64,000 nt of DNA from Escherichia coli (GTDB lineage: Bacteria; Pseudomonadota; Gammaproteobacteria; Enterobacterales; Enterobacteriaceae). Every line of letters starts with the position of its first letter. Position 1 is the stretch's first letter. The position numbers and the translations under genes are program-made. Below, in pieces: positions 3,577 through 12,561 of this stretch. The notes beneath the pieces are model-generated. The model did no database searches and was not told the origin of the DNA. It saw only the letters and a program-made list of their open reading frames with translations. Where the stretch lies: NCBI RefSeq assembly GCF_003790525.1, contig NZ_CP033635.1; one strand, 5' to 3'.

Positions 3577-5009
3577 TGCAGGTTTTACATGTATGTTCAG
3601 AGATGTTCCCGCTGCTTAAAACCGGCGGTCTGGCTGATGTTATTGGGGCATTACCCGCAGCACAAATCGCAGACGGCGTTGACGCTCGCGTACTGTTGCC
3701 TGCATTTCCCGATATTCGCCGTGGCGTGACCGATGCGCAGGTAGTATCCCGTCGTGATACCTTCGCCGGACATATCACGCTGTTGTTCGGTCATTACAAC
3801 GGGGTTGGCATATACCTGATTGACGCGCCGCATCTCTATGATCGTCCGGGAAGCCCGTATCACGATACCAACTTATTTGCCTATACCGACAACGTATTGC
3901 GTTTTGCGCTGCTGGGGTGGGTTGGGGCAGAAATGGCCAGTGGGCTTGACCCATTCTGGCGTCCTGATGTGGTGCATGCGCACGACTGGCATGCAGGCCT
4001 TGCGCCTGCGTATCTGGCGGCGCGCGGGCGTCCGGCGAAGTCGGTGTTTACTGTGCACAACCTGGCCTATCAAGGCATGTTTTATGCACATCACATGAAT
4101 GACATCCAATTGCCATGGTCATTCTTTAATATTCATGGGCTGGAATTCAACGGACAAATCTCTTTTCTGAAGGCCGGTCTGTACTATGCCGATCACATTA
4201 CGGCAGTCAGTCCAACCTACGCTCGCGAGATCACCGAACCGCAGTTTGCCTACGGTATGGAAGGTCTGTTGCAACAGCGTCACCGTGAAGGGCGTCTTTC
4301 CGGCGTACTGAACGGCGTGGACGAGAAAATCTGGAGTCCAGAGACGGACTTACTGTTGGCCTCGCGTTACACCCGCGATACGTTGGAAGATAAAGCGGAA
4401 AATAAGCGCCAGTTACAAATCGCAATGGGGCTTAAGGTTGACGATAAAGTGCCGCTTTTTGCAGTGGTGAGCCGTCTGACCAGCCAGAAAGGTCTCGACC
4501 TGGTGCTGGAGGCCTTACCGGGTCTTCTGGAGCAGGGCGGGCAACTGGCGCTACTCGGCGCGGGCGATCCGGTGCTGCAGGAAGGTTTCCTTGCGGCGGC
4601 AGCGGAATACCCCGGCCAGGTGGGCGTTCAGATTGGCTATCACGAAGCATTTTCGCATCGCATTATGGGCGGCGCGGACGTCATTCTGGTGCCCAGCCGT
4701 TTTGAACCGTGCGGCTTAACGCAACTTTATGGATTGAAGTACGGTACGCTGCCGTTAGTGCGGCGCACCGGTGGGCTTGCTGATACGGTTTCTGACTGTT
4801 CTCTTGAGAACCTTGCAGATGGCGTCGCCAGTGGGTTTGTCTTTGAAGATAGTAATGCCTGGTCGCTATTACGGGCTATTCGACGTGCTTTTGTACTGTG
4901 GTCCCGTCCTTCACTGTGGCGGTTTGTGCAACGTCAGGCTATGGCAATGGATTTTAGCTGGCAGGTCGCGGCGAAGTCGTACCGTGAGCTTTACTATCGC
5001 TTGAAATAG
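3576..5009 (+). CDS. glgA: glycogen synthase (477 aa)
   Basis: [22 protein letters not shown]... with KTGGL motif; ATG overlaps the glgC stop (TAATG). Confidence 0.95.
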
Positions 5010-7475
<2,466 letters not shown>

Positions 7476-7488
7476 GTTCGCTAAAAAA

Positions 7489-7520
7489 CAGAACGGGGCC
7501 AAAAGGTCCCGTTTTTTTTC
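7489..7520 (+). terminator. rho-independent terminator downstream of glgP
   Basis: Imperfect GC-rich hairpin (acggggcc aaaa ggtcccgt) followed by T8 at 7512-7519. Confidence 0.6.
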
Positions 7521-7591
7521 GCCTTTATTTAGGAAAAGTGTCCAGAGGGGGCGAGGGTTATCGGGGAGTATAATTTCGCCATTCAGCAAGA

Positions 7592-9109
7592 ATGGAAAGA
7601 ATAATGCAAAACGGAAAATGGATTTTGACCTCGCTGGTAATGACTTTTTTTGGCATCCCCATACTGGCGCAATTTTTGGCAGCGGTTGTTGCCATGCTGG
7701 GGGCCGGGCTTGCCGCTATTTTTGATGTTTGCAATTTACTCTTTACGCCAACAATTTATCTTCTACTCAACGTCTTTATGCTGACGCTGGGCGCATTACT
7801 GCTATTTTTCTCTGGGCGAGTGTGGGCGGGCGATAGCGCACCAGAAAACAGAGAAATAGCCGCCTGGCGACAATGTCTTTTTTTAGTTCCCGCTTTATTA
7901 ACCCTGGTTGGCTGGATAATCACGCTACATCTGGCAGATTATCAATTTCGCCAGATGGTTTCAGGTTGGTTGGCAAACCTTATGCTTCCCTGGTTGGGCG
8001 TTTTTACAGTCTCATTCGTCGGTGGTGAGTACTGGTGGATAGTCATTATTCCCGTTGGCGCGCATATCAGTTTTTCACTGGGATACGGCTGGCCGACCAG
8101 ACACCCTTTAACCGGCACCTCCGGTCTACGTTGCCGTAATTTACTTCTGTTCATTCTTCTCTTACTGGGTATTGTCGCTGGTTATCAGGCTTATTTATAT
8201 AAACAGCTTAATCCCGGCGTCGGTGTGCGTGAAAATATTGATACCTGGGCCTGGCGACCCGATAAACTTAATAATCAACTGACGCCACTGCGTGGTAAAC
8301 CACAAATTCAATTTACGCAAAACTGGCCGCGACTCGATGGCGCTACGGCGGCGTACCCCATTTATGCCTCTGCATTTTATGCATTAAGTGTAATACCAGA
8401 GGATTTTCACGTTTGGGATTATCTGGATAACTCTCGTACGCAAGAAGCATATAACAAAATCGTTAAGGGCGATGCTGATATTATTTTCGTGGCGCAACCT
8501 TCCGATGGGCAAAAAAAACGCGCTGAGAAATCGGGCGTCACTTTGCTGTACACGCCATTTGCCCGTGAAGCGTTTGTTTTCATCGTCAATGCGGATAATC
8601 CGGTTAATTCCCTGACTGAACAACAAGTGCGTGACATTTTTAGTGGCGCAATTACCAACTGGCGCACGGTTGGCGGTAACGATCAGGAGATCCAGACCTG
8701 GCAACGCCCGGAAGACTCTGGCAGCCAGACAGTGATGCAATCGCAGGTCATGAAAAATGTCCGCATGATCTCGCCGCAGGAAACCGAAGTGGCAAGCATG
8801 ATGGAGGGAATGATTAAAGTCGTTGCCGAATACCGTAATACAAACAACGCAATAGGCTACACCTTCCGCTATTACGCAACACAAATGAATGCCGATAAAA
8901 ATATAAAACTGCTAGCGATTAACGGTATTGCACCGACTGCGGAAAATATTCGTAACGGCAAATATCCGTATATCATCGATGCCTTTATGGTAACGCGGGA
9001 AAATACTACGTCAGAAACACAAAAACTGGTCGAATGGTTTTTAACGCCGCAGGGACAGAGTCTGGTGGAAGATGTGGGCTATGTGCCGCTGTATCCAACA
9101 ATGAAATAA
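7592..9109 (+). CDS. membrane-anchored PstS-like (phosphate-binding-protein fold) protein: N-terminal polytopic TM domain plus C-terminal PBP domain
   Basis: 505-aa ORF (a second ATG at 7604 has a better-spaced GGAAAG RBS). Residues 1-210 carry about 5-6 hydrophobic helices; the C-terminal 270 aa show PstS-like motifs (AAYPIYASAFY, RPEDSGSQTVM, AIGYTFRYYA) that align with E. coli PstS (FPAPVYAKWA, DGSGTSFVFTSY, AIGYVEYAYA). Possible -10 TATAAT at 7568-7573. Confidence 0.7.
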   Translation: MERIMQNGKWILTSLVMTFFGIPILAQFLAAVVAMLGAGLAAIFDVCNLLFTPTIYLLLNVFMLTLGALLLFFSGRVWAGDSAPENREIAAWRQCLFLVPALLTLVGWIITLHLADYQFRQMVSGWLANLMLPWLGVFTVSFVGGEYWWIVIIPVGAHISFSLGYGWPTRHPLTGTSGLRCRNLLLFILLLLGIVAGYQAYLYKQLNPGVGVRENIDTWAWRPDKLNNQLTPLRGKPQIQFTQNWPRLDGATAAYPIYASAFYALSVIPEDFHVWDYLDNSRTQEAYNKIVKGDADIIFVAQPSDGQKKRAEKSGVTLLYTPFAREAFVFIVNADNPVNSLTEQQVRDIFSGAITNWRTVGGNDQEIQTWQRPEDSGSQTVMQSQVMKNVRMISPQETEVASMMEGMIKVVAEYRNTNNAIGYTFRYYATQMNADKNIKLLAINGIAPTAENIRNGKYPYIIDAFMVTRENTTSETQKLVEWFLTPQGQSLVEDVGYVPLYPTMK

Positions 9110-9134
9110 CGCTCGAGAGAAAGGAATCAGCGCA

Positions 9135-10127
9135 ATGAATAAATTCACCGGTGTTTTACTATTAGGTACGGCGCTACTGGCGGGATGTGTCGACCGGGAA
9201 GGGTACTATAACAGCGTCAGGGAAGAAGACAGCCATGGACTGACGTCTCTGCGGGGGCAACCTGAATTACGTTACAACGATGATTGGTCAAGATGGCCGA
9301 GAGTGTACGGCGCTACAGCCTTATACCCGCTGTATGCCTCCGCGTATTATGAATTAGTACCCGAGCCAAAAGATAAGGATCGAACCTCGCTGGCCTGGCA
9401 GGCGTATGGTTTGCAACAAACCCGAACAGCTGAAGCCTACGATAGTCTGATTAAGGGTACCGCGACGGTTATTTTTGTTGCACAACCGTCGGAAGGACAG
9501 AAAAAACGTGCAGAAGAAGCAGGTGTTAAACTCAAATATACCGCTTTCGCCCGCGAAGCCTTTGTCTTTATCGTTGATATCAAAAACCCGGTTAATTCAC
9601 TTAGCGAACAGCAGGTCAAAGACATTTTTAGCGGTAAAGTGAGTCGCTGGAATAAAGTGGGCGGCGGTGACGAAAGTATAAAAGTCTGGCAGCGGCCAGA
9701 AGATTCTGGAAGCCAAACGGTTATGAAGGGACTGGTTATGCAAGATACTCCAATGCTGCCAGCCAAAAAATCCACTGTTATCGATCTTATGGGCGGTTTA
9801 ATTACCGAAGTCGCCGACTACCAAAATACACCATCTTCTATTGGATACACCTTCCACTATTACGTCACACGTATGAATGACAATATGCTCAAAATGCGCA
9901 AACAGATCAAACTGCTGGCTATAAATGGCGTTGCACCTACAGAGGAAAATATCCGTAACGGCACTTATCCGTACATAATTCATGCTTATATGGTGACGCA
10001 CGAAAACCCTACGCTGGAAACGCAGAAATTCGTCGACTGGTTTTTAAGCCCGCAGGGACAGCAATTGGTAGAGGATGTGGGCTATGTGCCGATTTATGAC
10101 GCATCATCCGAATCATCAGGACAATAA
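9135..10127 (+). CDS. PstS-like substrate-binding lipoprotein, tandem paralog of the upstream gene
   Basis: 330-aa ORF; lipoprotein signal MNKFTGVLLLGTALLAGC (lipobox LAGC); mature part colinear with and clearly similar to the C-terminal domain of ORF 7592-9109 (ALYPLYASAYY, RPEDSGSQTVM, SIGYTFHYYV). Confidence 0.7.
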   Translation: MNKFTGVLLLGTALLAGCVDREGYYNSVREEDSHGLTSLRGQPELRYNDDWSRWPRVYGATALYPLYASAYYELVPEPKDKDRTSLAWQAYGLQQTRTAEAYDSLIKGTATVIFVAQPSEGQKKRAEEAGVKLKYTAFAREAFVFIVDIKNPVNSLSEQQVKDIFSGKVSRWNKVGGGDESIKVWQRPEDSGSQTVMKGLVMQDTPMLPAKKSTVIDLMGGLITEVADYQNTPSSIGYTFHYYVTRMNDNMLKMRKQIKLLAINGVAPTEENIRNGTYPYIIHAYMVTHENPTLETQKFVDWFLSPQGQQLVEDVGYVPIYDASSESSGQ

Positions 10128-10129
10128 AG

Positions 10130-10730
10130 ATGAATAAAATCAGACTTTATATTCCTCCGTTAATTCTTGGTTTTGTTATTGTGCCGTTGTTGGTGTGGCC
10201 GACGGTGGTTGCTCTGGCTGCTTGTGTTATCACGCTGAGTTTTATGGGAGAAATACTGTTCTCTATCCCGCTCATGTTCAGGCGTATTTCACTTCTGGAA
10301 TTCCAACTTGGGTTATTGGCTGAATATGCACTTTTTTTTTCTGTGCCATGTGTTGCGTTGGTTGGCAATTTTCTTGCAGAGCTCAATCTGAACTGAAAAG
10401 CAGACTCCATTGTTGGTTGGTATTTGCACCAGTTTATTTCTGGTTGCTCCTGTGGAATATCATTTTCTATGTCGCGCCAGCGCAAATTGCTTTGCTGGAA
10501 AATATGCGCAATTTCTTTCTGACCATTGTCTGGTTACCCCTGAATTTTTTCAATTTGGGTCTCAGCCGTGGACTGACTTTATCGGTCCGATAAGCGCCCA
10601 GCTTGGTTTTGCATTGGGATATTATTGCCAGTGGCGTAGCAAAAATAGAAGTCAGAGGAAGAAGTGGGGCGAGTGGGTAATGTGTCTGAGTTTTGTTACG
10701 TTGGGTATGATTGCGTGGGCTTTGCGGTAA
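10130..10730 (+). pseudogene. small integral membrane protein gene split over three reading frames (likely frameshift-inactivated), translationally coupled to the upstream PstS-like gene
   Basis: Three overlapping hydrophobic ORFs in three different frames (10130-10396, 10348-10593, 10410-10730). A T9 homopolymer at 10332-10340 sits exactly where restoring one T would join frame 1 to frame 2; a second one-base shift is needed before 10593 (a T6 run lies at 10545-10550). ATG 10130 is 2 nt after the upstream stop. Confidence 0.45.
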
Positions 10731-10855
10731 TTCCTTGAATCAAAAAGTAGGTCAGATTGTTGACGAAGTGCGCTTTGTTTATGCCGGATGCTGCGTGAAC
10801 GCCTTATTTTGTCTACAAAATCATGCAAATTCAATATATTGCATAAACCACGTAG

Positions 10856-10880
10856 GCCTGATAAGCGTAGCGCATCAGGC
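10856..10880. repeat. REP (repetitive extragenic palindrome) element, followed by a T7 run
   Basis: gcctgataagcgtagcgcatcaggc is a typical enterobacterial REP palindrome; T-run at 10883-10889 could terminate plus-strand transcripts. Confidence 0.5.
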
Positions 10881-10897
10881 AGTTTTTTTGTTTATCA

Positions 10898-10921
10898 TCA
10901 GTCTCAGGTCAGATTGAAATC
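10898..10921 (-). terminator. perfect inverted repeat downstream of glpD (candidate glpD terminator hairpin)
   Basis: ggtcagat tgaa atctgacc, 24 nt beyond the glpD stop; no strong U-tract on the glpD strand, so function is uncertain. Confidence 0.35.
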
Positions 10922-10944
10922 TGACCTGGCCACCTTACGTTAAT

Positions 10945-12450
10945 TTACGACGCCAGCGACAACTTCTGCTGCGTATACTCCACCAGCCACTGACTCACAC
11001 GAGATTGTTGATCCGCATTTAGCCACATGCCTTGTTTTGTGCGACGCCACAGGGCATCGTCGGCGCGACGGACCCATTCGTGATCCACCAGGTATTTCAG
11101 TTCCGCTTCGTAGAACTCATGACCGAAATCCTCCCCGAGGTCGCTTATCGCCCCCGCATTGCCGAGCAGCAGTTCGCTGTTGCTGCCGTAAGTGCGCGCG
11201 TAGTGACGTGCCAGCGATTCAGTCAGGAACGGGTAACGGCGGCGCAGGCGAGCGGCATAATCGTCGCGATCGCCTTCAATGGCACCACCCGGCAGCACGC
11301 TCTCTTTCGTCCACGCCGGGCCAATACCCTGATAATACGGCGTTAGTTTTTCCAGCGCATGTTCCGCCAGTTTGCGGTAGGTGGTCAGCTTACCGCCGAA
11401 TACCGACAGCAGCGGTGCTTTGCCGTTTTCGTCATGGATATCAAGGGTGTAATCACGGGTAATTGCCTGCGGCGAGTCGGACTCATCATCACACAGCGGA
11501 CGCACGCCGGAGTAAGTCCAGACGATATCGTCACGGCTTAGCTGCTTTTTAAAGTGCGTGTTATACACTTTCAGCAGGTAATTGATTTCACTCTCTTCAA
11601 TCTTCACGGCTTTCGGATCACCTTTGTATTCCACATCGGTGGTGCCGATGATGGAAAACTCGTCCATCCACGGGATCACGAACACAATACGTTTATCTTC
11701 GTTTTGCAGAATGTAGGCTTGCTTCTGGGTATGCACGCGTGGCACCACAATATGGCTGCCTTTGATCAGGCGAATGCCATAAGGTGAAGGCAGATGCATC
11801 CCGTCGTCGAAAAATTGTTTCACCCACGGGCCGGTGGCGTTCACCAGGCCGCGCGCCTGCCAGGTGTATTTTTTGCCGGTATCGATATCTTCTGCTTCCA
11901 CAATCCACAGGCCGTTTTCGCGGCGAGCAGAAGTGGCACGAGTACGAGTAAGCACTTCACCGCCTTTACGTACCACCATCTGGGCGTTGGCGAGTACCAG
12001 ACGGGCGTCGTCTACCCAACAGTCAGAATATTCGAATCCGCGCTTAATTTCCGGTTTTAACACTGAGTTTGCGCCAAAACGCAAACCGGTTGATCCCGGC
12101 AGGCTGGTGCGTTTACCCAGATGATCGTACATAAACAGACCAATGCGAATCATCCACGCCGGGCGCAGATGCGGACGATGTGGCAGGCGAAAACGCATCG
12201 GGAAGGCGATATGCGGAGCCATTTTCAGCAACACTTCACGTTCAGCCAGCGCCTCGCTGACCAGGCGGAATTCATAGTGCTCAAGGTAGCGCAGGCCACC
12301 GTGAATGAGTTTTGAACTGGCGGAAGAGGTCGCGCAAGCGAGATCCTGCGCCTCCAGCATCAGCACGGATAAACCGCGTCCAGCGGCGTCTGCCGCGATA
12401 CCAGCACCATTGATGCCGCCACCTATCACAATCAGATCTTTGATTTCCAT
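10945..12450 (-). CDS. glpD: aerobic glycerol-3-phosphate dehydrogenase (501 aa)
   Basis: Track ORF extends to 12465; start trimmed to the Met of MEIKDLIVIGGGINGAGIAADAAGRG (FAD-binding GxGxxG). Confidence 0.95.
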   Translation of the reverse strand: MEIKDLIVIGGGINGAGIAADAAGRGLSVLMLEAQDLACATSSASSKLIHGGLRYLEHYEFRLVSEALAEREVLLKMAPHIAFPMRFRLPHRPHLRPAWMIRIGLFMYDHLGKRTSLPGSTGLRFGANSVLKPEIKRGFEYSDCWVDDARLVLANAQMVVRKGGEVLTRTRATSARRENGLWIVEAEDIDTGKKYTWQARGLVNATGPWVKQFFDDGMHLPSPYGIRLIKGSHIVVPRVHTQKQAYILQNEDKRIVFVIPWMDEFSIIGTTDVEYKGDPKAVKIEESEINYLLKVYNTHFKKQLSRDDIVWTYSGVRPLCDDESDSPQAITRDYTLDIHDENGKAPLLSVFGGKLTTYRKLAEHALEKLTPYYQGIGPAWTKESVLPGGAIEGDRDDYAARLRRRYPFLTESLARHYARTYGSNSELLLGNAGAISDLGEDFGHEFYEAELKYLVDHEWVRRADDALWRRTKQGMWLNADQQSRVSQWLVEYTQQKLSLAS

Positions 12451-12561
12451 GCTGCCCTCATTCACTTTCGTTAAAGTTCATAAATGTTCGTTATCGAACA
12501 TATTAGCAAAGAATCGCGCTTTGGGTAACATTGAAAAAACATTTTAGAGTGATATGTATAA

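Follow-up and report, generated by a model that had tools for sequence, protein, structure and literature searches.

Orphan PstS-like proteins in the glgP-glpD interval of Escherichia coli: candidate ABC-independent envelope binding proteins with a possible protective role

Between the convergent genes glgP and glpD, which belong to two core metabolic operons, some strains of Escherichia coli carry an island of genes for proteins resembling the phosphate-binding protein PstS. The stretch of DNA analysed here (64,000 nucleotides of contig NZ_CP033635.1, assembly GCF_003790525.1; hereafter the window) contains one such island, in which gene 1 encodes a PstS-like domain fused to a membrane domain, gene 2 a PstS-like lipoprotein and gene 3 a small membrane protein interrupted by frameshifts. 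Neither the open reading frame (ORF) list nor the RefSeq annotation shows an ATP-binding cassette (ABC) permease or ATPase gene within the glgP-glpD interval. What, then, do these binding proteins do there? The island as such is not new: positions 7400-11000 of the window are 100% identical to E. coli SMS-3-5, RefSeq annotates the same genes, and the interval is an already annotated, highly polymorphic accessory locus of which the window holds one allele. New here are the exact origin of the K-12 gene yzgL, the duplication of the gene 1 membrane domain in gene 3, a phylum-spanning orphan family with Ala at the position of PstS Asp56, and a lipoprotein lineage found in the immunity slot (directly after the toxin domain) of a putative new Rhs toxin domain. 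Tentatively, and a little short of even confidence, we explain the island products as ABC-independent envelope binding proteins, possibly protective.

Binding domains, membrane domains and the orphan family

The gene 1 product comprises an N-terminal multi-transmembrane domain (approximately residues 1-206), a linker and a C-terminal PstS-like binding domain (approximately residues 245-505). A preliminary description of the locus had called both binding proteins PstS-like, and a profile search agreed, with significant matches to Pfam family PBP_like_2 (PF12849) in gene 1 (residues 249-485, E = 5e-31) and gene 2 (residues 94-306, E = 5.5e-29). An AlphaFold2 (AF2) model of gene 1 was obtained with a predicted local distance difference test score (pLDDT) of 89.7 and a predicted template modelling score (pTM) of 0.80. 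Its top Foldseek match was phosphate-bound PstS of Clostridium perfringens (4gd5_A, E = 2e-14, target-normalised template modelling score (TM-score) 0.78), and the matches after it were all PstS proteins; this comparison of the two-lobe fold was made with the gene 1 model only. The Prokaryotic Genome Annotation Pipeline (PGAP) names genes 1 and 2 'PstS family phosphate ABC transporter substrate-binding protein'. Their scores against the NCBIfam PstS family model TIGR02136 (124.8 and 122.5 bits, respectively) are below its cut-off of 206.6, and the PstS equivalog model TIGR00975 gave 18 bits against a cut-off of 205. The fold and an anion-type cleft are well supported for these proteins, and membership in an ABC phosphate transporter is not supported.

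At its N-terminus (MNKFTGVLLLGTALLAGC followed by VD), the gene 2 product has a signal peptide ending in the lipobox LLAGC, in agreement with the lipoprotein pattern L-[AS]-[GA]-C, and Val at position +2. Under the Lol sorting rule, residue +2 of a lipoprotein decides outer-membrane targeting, and because of this Val the protein is probably anchored in the outer membrane. Between genes 1 and 2, the binding domains share 59% identity over 286 aa (E = 2e-119), so that their earlier description as clear paralogs stands; the local duplication proposed with it is misleading, because gene 2 is equally far from gene 1 (61% identity in the tree set) and from the fused ortholog of Klebsiella (60%). In a neighbour-joining tree of the binding domains, built with no bootstrap, all lipoprotein forms grouped in a single clade that lies within the enterobacterial membrane-fused forms. 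The lone lipoproteins that follow glgP in a Salmonella-type locus have 81-84% identity to gene 2, and the Rhs-linked copies (see below) have 65-67%. Judged from the tree, gene 2 is not a recent local duplicate of gene 1 and is a member of a separate enterobacterial lipoprotein clade.

The other half of gene 1 recurs in gene 3. The gene 3 family profile aligned over its full length with that of the gene 1 membrane domain (hhalign probability 98.5%; E = 2.4e-14 in global and 7e-13 in local mode), the controls giving E = 0.046 for a reversed sequence and 0.005 for GlpG, and by this comparison gene 3 is a paralog, of about 200 aa and six predicted transmembrane helices, of gene 1's own membrane domain. 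As gene 3 has this paralogy, the island reads as two copies of one pair of modules: in the first, the membrane domain is fused to the binding domain that follows it, and in the second, the modules are split and their order is reversed (lipoprotein, then membrane domain alone). The earlier label of a frameshifted small membrane gene was right about the frameshifts and incomplete in that it missed both the paralogy and their fixation in a lineage. Relative to the intact 199-aa CLSC36 gene, two T are gained in one run and one T is lost from another (Table 1), and at least 25 other complete genomes carry the 240-bp segment with both frameshifts at 100% identity, while 163 carry it at 99% or more. 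Because these 25 or more genomes were sequenced independently, sequencing error is ruled out as the cause, and the frameshifts are real and lineage-fixed.

No known fold and no Pfam family matched the gene 1 membrane domain, the fold of which was seen in its own family only. An uncharacterised E. albertii protein of 174 aa in AFDB50, which matches the model of this domain with a target-normalised TM-score of 0.79, is presumably a gene 3 homolog. Further candidates were tried: toxin-linked membrane proteins of ~100 aa and a 108-aa Salmonella membrane protein were rejected as relatives of the membrane domain of genes 1 and 3, their hhalign E-values being at the level of the controls (0.007-0.8), and homology between the three-transmembrane anchor of Bacillota and the proteobacterial six-transmembrane domain is not established, the last helix and the linker being the parts that align (E = 3.7e-4). 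In OpuA- and GlnPQ-type ABC importers, fused substrate-binding domains (SBDs) are likewise held at the membrane by a polytopic N-terminal segment; their membrane part, however, is an ABC permease with an ATPase partner, whereas the island domain has no such match and no linked ATPase.

Relatives were sought in one genome per species with the signatures P-x-[DGN]-SGSQT-[VIA]-M and [SA][IL]GY[TS]F[RH]YY. A total of 516 were found, and neighbourhoods and architecture were read in the best 79 loci of these. Almost every protein in the 79 loci consists of an N-terminal multi-transmembrane segment and the binding domain. Nearly all have 3-7 transmembrane segments, the hydrophobicity count giving 3-4 in Bacillota (~385 aa) and 4-8 in Proteobacteria, Campylobacteraceae, Actinomycetota and others (~480-580 aa). 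Clustering of the neighbours revealed nothing recurrent outside the enterobacterial glg/glp synteny, and no pstCAB; a seemingly recurrent 'ABC ATPase' cluster turned out to be a mix of unrelated ABC proteins at varying distances. The combination of a membrane anchor and a PstS-like domain is an orphan, standalone architecture across phyla, and the view that the island encodes orphan binding proteins is upheld, with no ABC partner in the interval and no pstCAB recurring in the 79 related loci. Between ruvC and a Peptidase_C92 (permuted papain-like) gene, Salmonella has another, more distant paralog of the fused PstS-like type (498 aa; locus L013, 5001-7193), and some Salmonella therefore have family members at several loci. 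The fused ortholog of Leclercia (L014/L015, 6625-8138) is followed 128 bp later by a gene for a PPK2 polyphosphate kinase and then by a CcdB-type toxin-antitoxin pair.

The cleft was mapped through an alignment with 4Q8R, not by superposition, using T10, F11, S38, D56, R135, S139, G140 and T141, which we take to be the phosphate contacts of E. coli PstS. In 15 of 15 representatives, from Sporosarcina to E. coli, the aligned residues are identical: Thr for T10, Ala for F11 (a backbone contact), Thr for S38, Arg for R135, Ser for S139, Gly for G140 and Ser for T141. The Rhs-linked lipoprotein copies among them keep this full signature. At the D56 position the representatives have Ala, save for Val in one. 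Seven of the eight presumed contacts are hence kept or conservatively replaced and D56 alone is lost, and the family has invariant residues of its own (WQRP and GY[TS]F[RH]YY). Since Thr/Thr/Arg/Ser-Gly-Ser is invariant from Sporosarcina to E. coli, the cleft on balance probably holds an anionic group of the phosphate type.

PstS itself (of PstSCAB; PF12849, TIGR02136, TIGR00975, PDB 4GD5/4Q8R, 4N13 and 4EXL) gave the best sequence and structure matches, and the island proteins share with it the common type II binding-protein fold and the anion-binding loops GAT..., ...T... and R-x3-S-G-S. They differ from it in being fused to or paired with a six-transmembrane domain, in not lying beside pstCAB, in their low family-model scores (122-125 vs 206.6 bits), in the Ala at the Asp56 position and in the extra invariant residues. 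Pattern searches found neither a Pho box nor a CpxR box upstream of gene 1, the best match to the 18-bp Pho-box consensus in 7476-7600 being 10 of 18, which is a weak test. With NCBIfam PstS scores below the cut-off, Ala for Asp56 and no Pho box found, the phosphate role considered in the preliminary description is unproven. The PGAP label is probably misleading, because the family never occurs in a Pst transporter, is always membrane-anchored and lacks the phosphate-selective Asp.

Lipoproteins next to an Rhs toxin domain

In E. albertii (L018) and in Salmonella (L016 and L021-24), the homologs of gene 2 at 65-67% identity stand directly after a co-oriented toxin domain, a link to polymorphic toxins that the preliminary description had missed. 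On the E. albertii contig, the gene order is TssB, Hcp, VgrG, PAAR-Rhs, PstS-like lipoprotein and the next Rhs gene; the Rhs protein ends with ...DPLGL and a 131-aa C-terminal domain, and the lipoprotein gene starts 84-105 bp past the Rhs stop, the gap being free of other ORFs. The same toxin domain (65% identical) is encoded in Salmonella enterica by an orphan ORF that starts with MIDPLGL, and a PstS-like lipoprotein gene follows 217 bp on. Around this pair, the array has Rhs-core fragments and one of PAAR, an HExxH toxin and an Ntox34 fragment, accompanied by a lipoprotein and a HEAT protein, respectively, and another PstS-like lipoprotein.

No Pfam or NCBIfam family matched the Rhs C-terminal domain. 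It was found in 215 clusters of a 50%-identity library at E <= 0.001, many of them with the domain at the extreme C-terminus of proteins of 1,300-2,400 aa, of which two were confirmed as Rhs/YD proteins, and its invariant residues include His27-Thr28, SWGN, GW, Asp61, His100, Asn102 and N-C-K-x-E. By these characters it is a genuine, unnamed polymorphic-toxin domain. Its NCK motif at a helix start presumably recalls the LRAT/PLAAT-type permuted papain-like lipid enzymes. As the usual downstream partner of the domain is a protein with 2-5 transmembrane segments, the partner implies that the toxin would act at the membrane.

Effectors of type VI secretion systems (T6SS) and of the Rhs type have periplasmic or lipoprotein immunity proteins, e.g., the Tli and Tai classes. 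The relatives of gene 2 resemble these in being outer-membrane-type lipoproteins placed right after an Rhs toxin domain, also in an orphan array; the difference is that the window has no toxin and that the usual partner of the toxin family is a membrane protein of ~100 aa. A PstS-fold immunity protein was not described in the literature searched. Since the Rhs-linked copies keep the full cleft signature, they would, if immunity proteins, probably work through the common binding site of the family.

Alleles and layout of the interval

A total of 5,426 complete E. coli genomes were surveyed. The arrangement of SMS-3-5 was present over at least 80% of its length in 882, a 255-aa cassette gene replaced the lipoprotein gene in 2,952 (2,326 of these also having a 236-aa gene), and the yzgL junction of K-12 was found in 1,261; the three forms together account for 94% of the genomes. 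The island is thus accessory, as had been supposed, being present in this form in 882 genomes only, and the K-12 interval differs by a deletion. This deletion of 2.8 kb between the two copies of the 9-bp microhomology GGGCGAGTG, in gene 1 and gene 3, produced yzgL (b3427), in which the first ~230 bp of gene 1 are joined out of frame to the 3' end of gene 3 as a 93-codon chimeric ORF with neither binding domain. The junction between the two copies confirms the suggestion that the island is the intact ancestor of yzgL. In a 2009 array study, yzgL was mildly Cpx-repressed (PMC2731931).

The 255-aa cassette gene ends in ~10 codons (YDASSESPGK) left over from the tail of the lipoprotein gene (YDASSESSGQ), and since this tail is retained, the lipoprotein form is, on sequence grounds, ancestral to the cassette alleles. 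Pfam found nothing in the 236-aa and 255-aa cassette proteins, the former of which has just the 45-residue YbbD head in common with that family. Downstream of the fused gene, K. oxytoca has a gene that faintly matches DUF4279, a described immunity family, and a YbbD_head gene; Salmonella (L008) has a full-length YbbD-family gene in that place. The YbbD-family neighbours of the fused gene have a common N-terminal 'head' of ~45 residues and unrelated tails, a layout like that of polymorphic cassettes; examples are proteins of 236 aa in E. coli, 234 and 139 aa in Klebsiella and 181 aa (full length, one transmembrane segment) in Salmonella, and their genes lie at 2224-3704 of L002 (E. coli Ecol_517), 7564-8109 of L008 and 7838-8958 of L009. 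E. coli TA054 (L019/L020, 4988-11064) has three PstS-like paralogs in tandem at the glgP-glpD site; the order there is a 141-aa gene, a 516-aa fused protein, two PstS-like paralogs (307 or 248 aa; 326 aa), small genes of 120, 235 and 142 aa, and glpD.

In S. Typhimurium, a PstS-like gene of the same family lies in the same interval, and the orthologs SL1344_3495 and SL1344_3494 belong to an operon repressed by an IclR-like regulator; the function of the PstS-like gene was described as enigmatic, and the two orthologs as possible 'remnants of a transporter complex' (PMC12445098, J Bacteriol 2025). The Salmonella locus differs from the E. coli island in its operon with a gene for an iron-containing alcohol dehydrogenase (Fe-ADH), its IclR-like repressor and the xylonate genes nearby, none of which is in the island, and in its YbbD-type downstream partner, against the pair of lipoprotein and membrane domain in E. 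coli. The glp-glg region was treated as a structural hotspot in a 2026 typing paper (PMC13185298).

Synonymous divergence (dS) between alleles is 0.3-0.4 in genes 1 and 2 and up to 0.88 in gene 3, vs 0.07-0.08 in the last 375 bp of glgP, and the ratio of nonsynonymous to synonymous divergence (dN/dS) is 0.10-0.30 throughout genes 1-3, which therefore indicates purifying selection on them across old alleles. In the last 354 bp of glpD (10945-11300), dS between strains is 0.17-0.38; since this is above the value of the glgP tail, the deep divergence of the island alleles apparently reaches the 3' end of glpD and not glgP.

The features of the interval are listed in Table 1, and all those of the preliminary description were found where it had placed them, including the frameshifted membrane gene and the repetitive extragenic palindromic (REP) elements. 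The GC content is 0.462 in the island, 0.516 in glgP and 0.550 in glpD, so that the unit is indeed AT-richer than its flanks, and it is closed by the REPs. RefSeq starts gene 1 at 7601, and in-frame ATGs occur at 7592 and 7604; the spacing is 25 bp between genes 1 and 2 and 2 bp between the gene 2 stop and the start of gene 3. The hairpin with T8 after glgP likely separates the island from glgP transcription. The REP units GCCGGATG...CATCAGGC at 10783-10880 are imperfect palindromic units of ~35 bp in an inverted pair, as in a bacterial interspersed mosaic element (BIME); a query containing them had a median of 18 matching places per genome in the 5,426 genomes, the short matches being confined to 10751-10905. 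The Rfam model ES036 (CssrF), a small RNA, matched 10817-10859 on the plus strand with 43.6 bits (gathering score 37.6); this match is made up of the inner arm of the REP pair and the spacer at its centre, and may reflect a model built on a BIME copy. A weak and probably chance match to the Rfam 'ylbH leader' at 7482-7586 (+) (22.9 bits vs a gathering score of 50, E = 0.074) extends over the glgP terminator and the region upstream of gene 1.

Table 1. Positions of the features in the window and of the Rhs toxin domain in two other loci
Feature	Position	Strand	Basis and remarks
glgP	5028-7475	+	ORF list
Candidate glgP intrinsic terminator	7484-7517	+	Stem ACGGGGCC/GGTCCCGT, loop AAAA, T8; read by eye; unlisted in consensus scan
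Gene 1	7592-9109	+	505 aa; ORF list, RefSeq, Pfam PBP_like_2, AF2 model, Foldseek
Gene 1 membrane domain	7592-8230	+	Six predicted helices
Left copy of 9-bp microhomology GGGCGAGTG	7814-7822	+	blastn breakpoints, junction sequence
Gene 2	9135-10127	+	330-aa PstS-like lipoprotein; ORF list, Pfam, neighbour-joining tree
Gene 3 pseudogene	10130-10730	+	Three overlapping ORF fragments; RefSeq note 'frameshifted'; aligned to intact alleles
Gene 3 frameshift 1	10332-10340	+	T9 run (+2 T) vs T7 in intact alleles
Gene 3 frameshift 2	10545-10550	+	T6 run (-1 T) vs T7 in intact CLSC36 allele
Right copy of GGGCGAGTG microhomology	10667-10675	+	blastn breakpoints, junction sequence
Inverted REP pair, BIME-like	~10776-10885	not assigned	Central AT-rich spacer, then T-run; dispersed repeat DNA
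glpD	10945-12465	-	Convergent with glgP; ORF list
Rhs C-terminal toxin domain	L018 7500-7896 (E. albertii); L021 9950-10396 (Salmonella)		~130 aa

Possible roles of the island

That the island proteins combine a PstS-fold binding domain with a family-specific six-helix membrane domain and are independent of an ABC transporter can be stated with high confidence. In the explanation that we tentatively prefer, they would hold a ligand without importing it, gene 1 at the outer face of the inner membrane and gene 2 under the outer membrane. A role in protecting the envelope in inter-bacterial competition is speculative, and we regard it as doubtful. It is suggested because the lineage of gene 2 occupies the immunity position after a putatively membrane-acting Rhs toxin domain (the E. 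albertii T6SS locus and the Salmonella orphan array), and because alternative alleles of E. coli and Klebsiella carry cassettes of the immunity-array type (YbbD head, DUF4279) in the same slot. The island would then be an orphan immunity depot, which neutralises the toxin or sequesters its ligand via the conserved cleft. In its full form, the proposal would count PstS-fold lipoproteins as immunity proteins of a new class, directed against a new Rhs/T6SS toxin that acts on membranes, and would make the glgP-glpD island, with its fused, split and multi-copy variants, an orphan-immunity depot whose invariant cleft (from Firmicutes to E. coli) would serve to neutralise the toxin or to sequester its phosphorylated ligand; this full form we consider somewhat unlikely.

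Many observations weigh against a protective role. Among 71 metagenomic loci with this toxin family, a ~100-aa membrane protein is encoded right downstream of the toxin in 39, as it is after two distant Rhs proteins, and a PstS-like gene follows in none of the 71 nor after those two; the PstS-like partner is therefore an enterobacterial peculiarity resting on two loci. In one of these, the PAAR-Rhs gene of E. albertii is split by a frameshift into overlapping ORFs (3759-6767 and 6718-7896 of L018), and is either a pseudogene or an assembly error. A toxin gene or remnant was not found by the toxin hidden Markov model (HMM) search in the window or in any glgP-glpD island, and blastn of the E. 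albertii toxin DNA against the 5,426 E. coli genomes gave no match. PADLOC and PHROGs gave no meaningful match for any island protein or alternative cassette protein. The strict conservation of the cleft in the Rhs-linked copies is unusual for an immunity protein that simply binds a toxin. Outside Enterobacteriaceae, the family is represented by a standalone gene in ordinary chromosomal contexts, which suits housekeeping-type binding better than a conflict function, and the PPK2 gene of Leclercia is the sole phosphate-metabolism neighbour in any locus. Deletion of the operon bearing the S. Typhimurium ortholog caused no notable fitness change in mice (PMC12445098).

A rival explanation is that the proteins are accessory receptors for phosphate or another oxyanion. 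They would capture the ion in the periplasm and pass it on to the chromosomally encoded PstCAB or Pit systems, or else signal it to a sensor. The PBP_like_2/PstS-fold matches with phosphate-bound PstS as the best structural match, the seven of eight presumed classical contacts kept or conservatively replaced, the Leclercia PPK2 gene and the conservation of a standalone gene across phyla are all as expected of such receptors. We nevertheless hold them to be unlikely, as the genes never adjoin pstCAB in the 79 loci, the NCBIfam PstS scores are far under the cut-offs, Ala or Val stands in place of Asp56 in the 15 representatives, no Pho-box-like site lies upstream (10 of 18 at best), most E. coli, K-12 included, have lost or replaced the locus, and the conserved six-transmembrane domain exceeds the needs of an anchor.

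The variability of the locus could also mean that the fused protein is a target or receptor exploited by a toxin or phage, with the lipoprotein copies as soluble decoys and with allelic divergence and presence/absence as escape. Alleles that lie at dS 0.3-0.9 and are yet under purifying selection, the frequent loss alleles, and lipoprotein copies that share the cleft of the membrane form and adjoin a toxin would agree with this; but no toxin or phage is known to use the fused protein, PHROGs and PADLOC were negative, and dN/dS over whole domains gives no sign of diversifying selection, which makes exploitation of this kind distinctly improbable. The remaining possibility is decay, in which the genes are functionless remnants of a transporter operon drifting to loss, as was proposed for the Salmonella orthologs, whose naming as 'remnants of a transporter complex' and deletion with no fitness effect (PMC12445098) would fit, as do the gene 3 pseudogene here, the stub of K-12 and the absence of partner genes from the island. 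It is very improbable in view of the dN/dS of 0.10-0.30 for genes 1-3 across very old alleles, the cleft invariant across phyla, the same orphan architecture in hundreds of species, and the intact genes 1 and 2 in a lineage that lost gene 3.

The analysis defines a widespread orphan family, in which a multi-transmembrane anchor is joined to a PstS-like domain, and a candidate new toxin domain. If the link of the lipoprotein lineage with the Rhs toxin domain is true, the known folds of immunity proteins would be extended by a new one, and there would be an explanation of why a locus between two core metabolic operons ranks among the most diverged and most remodelled in E. coli.

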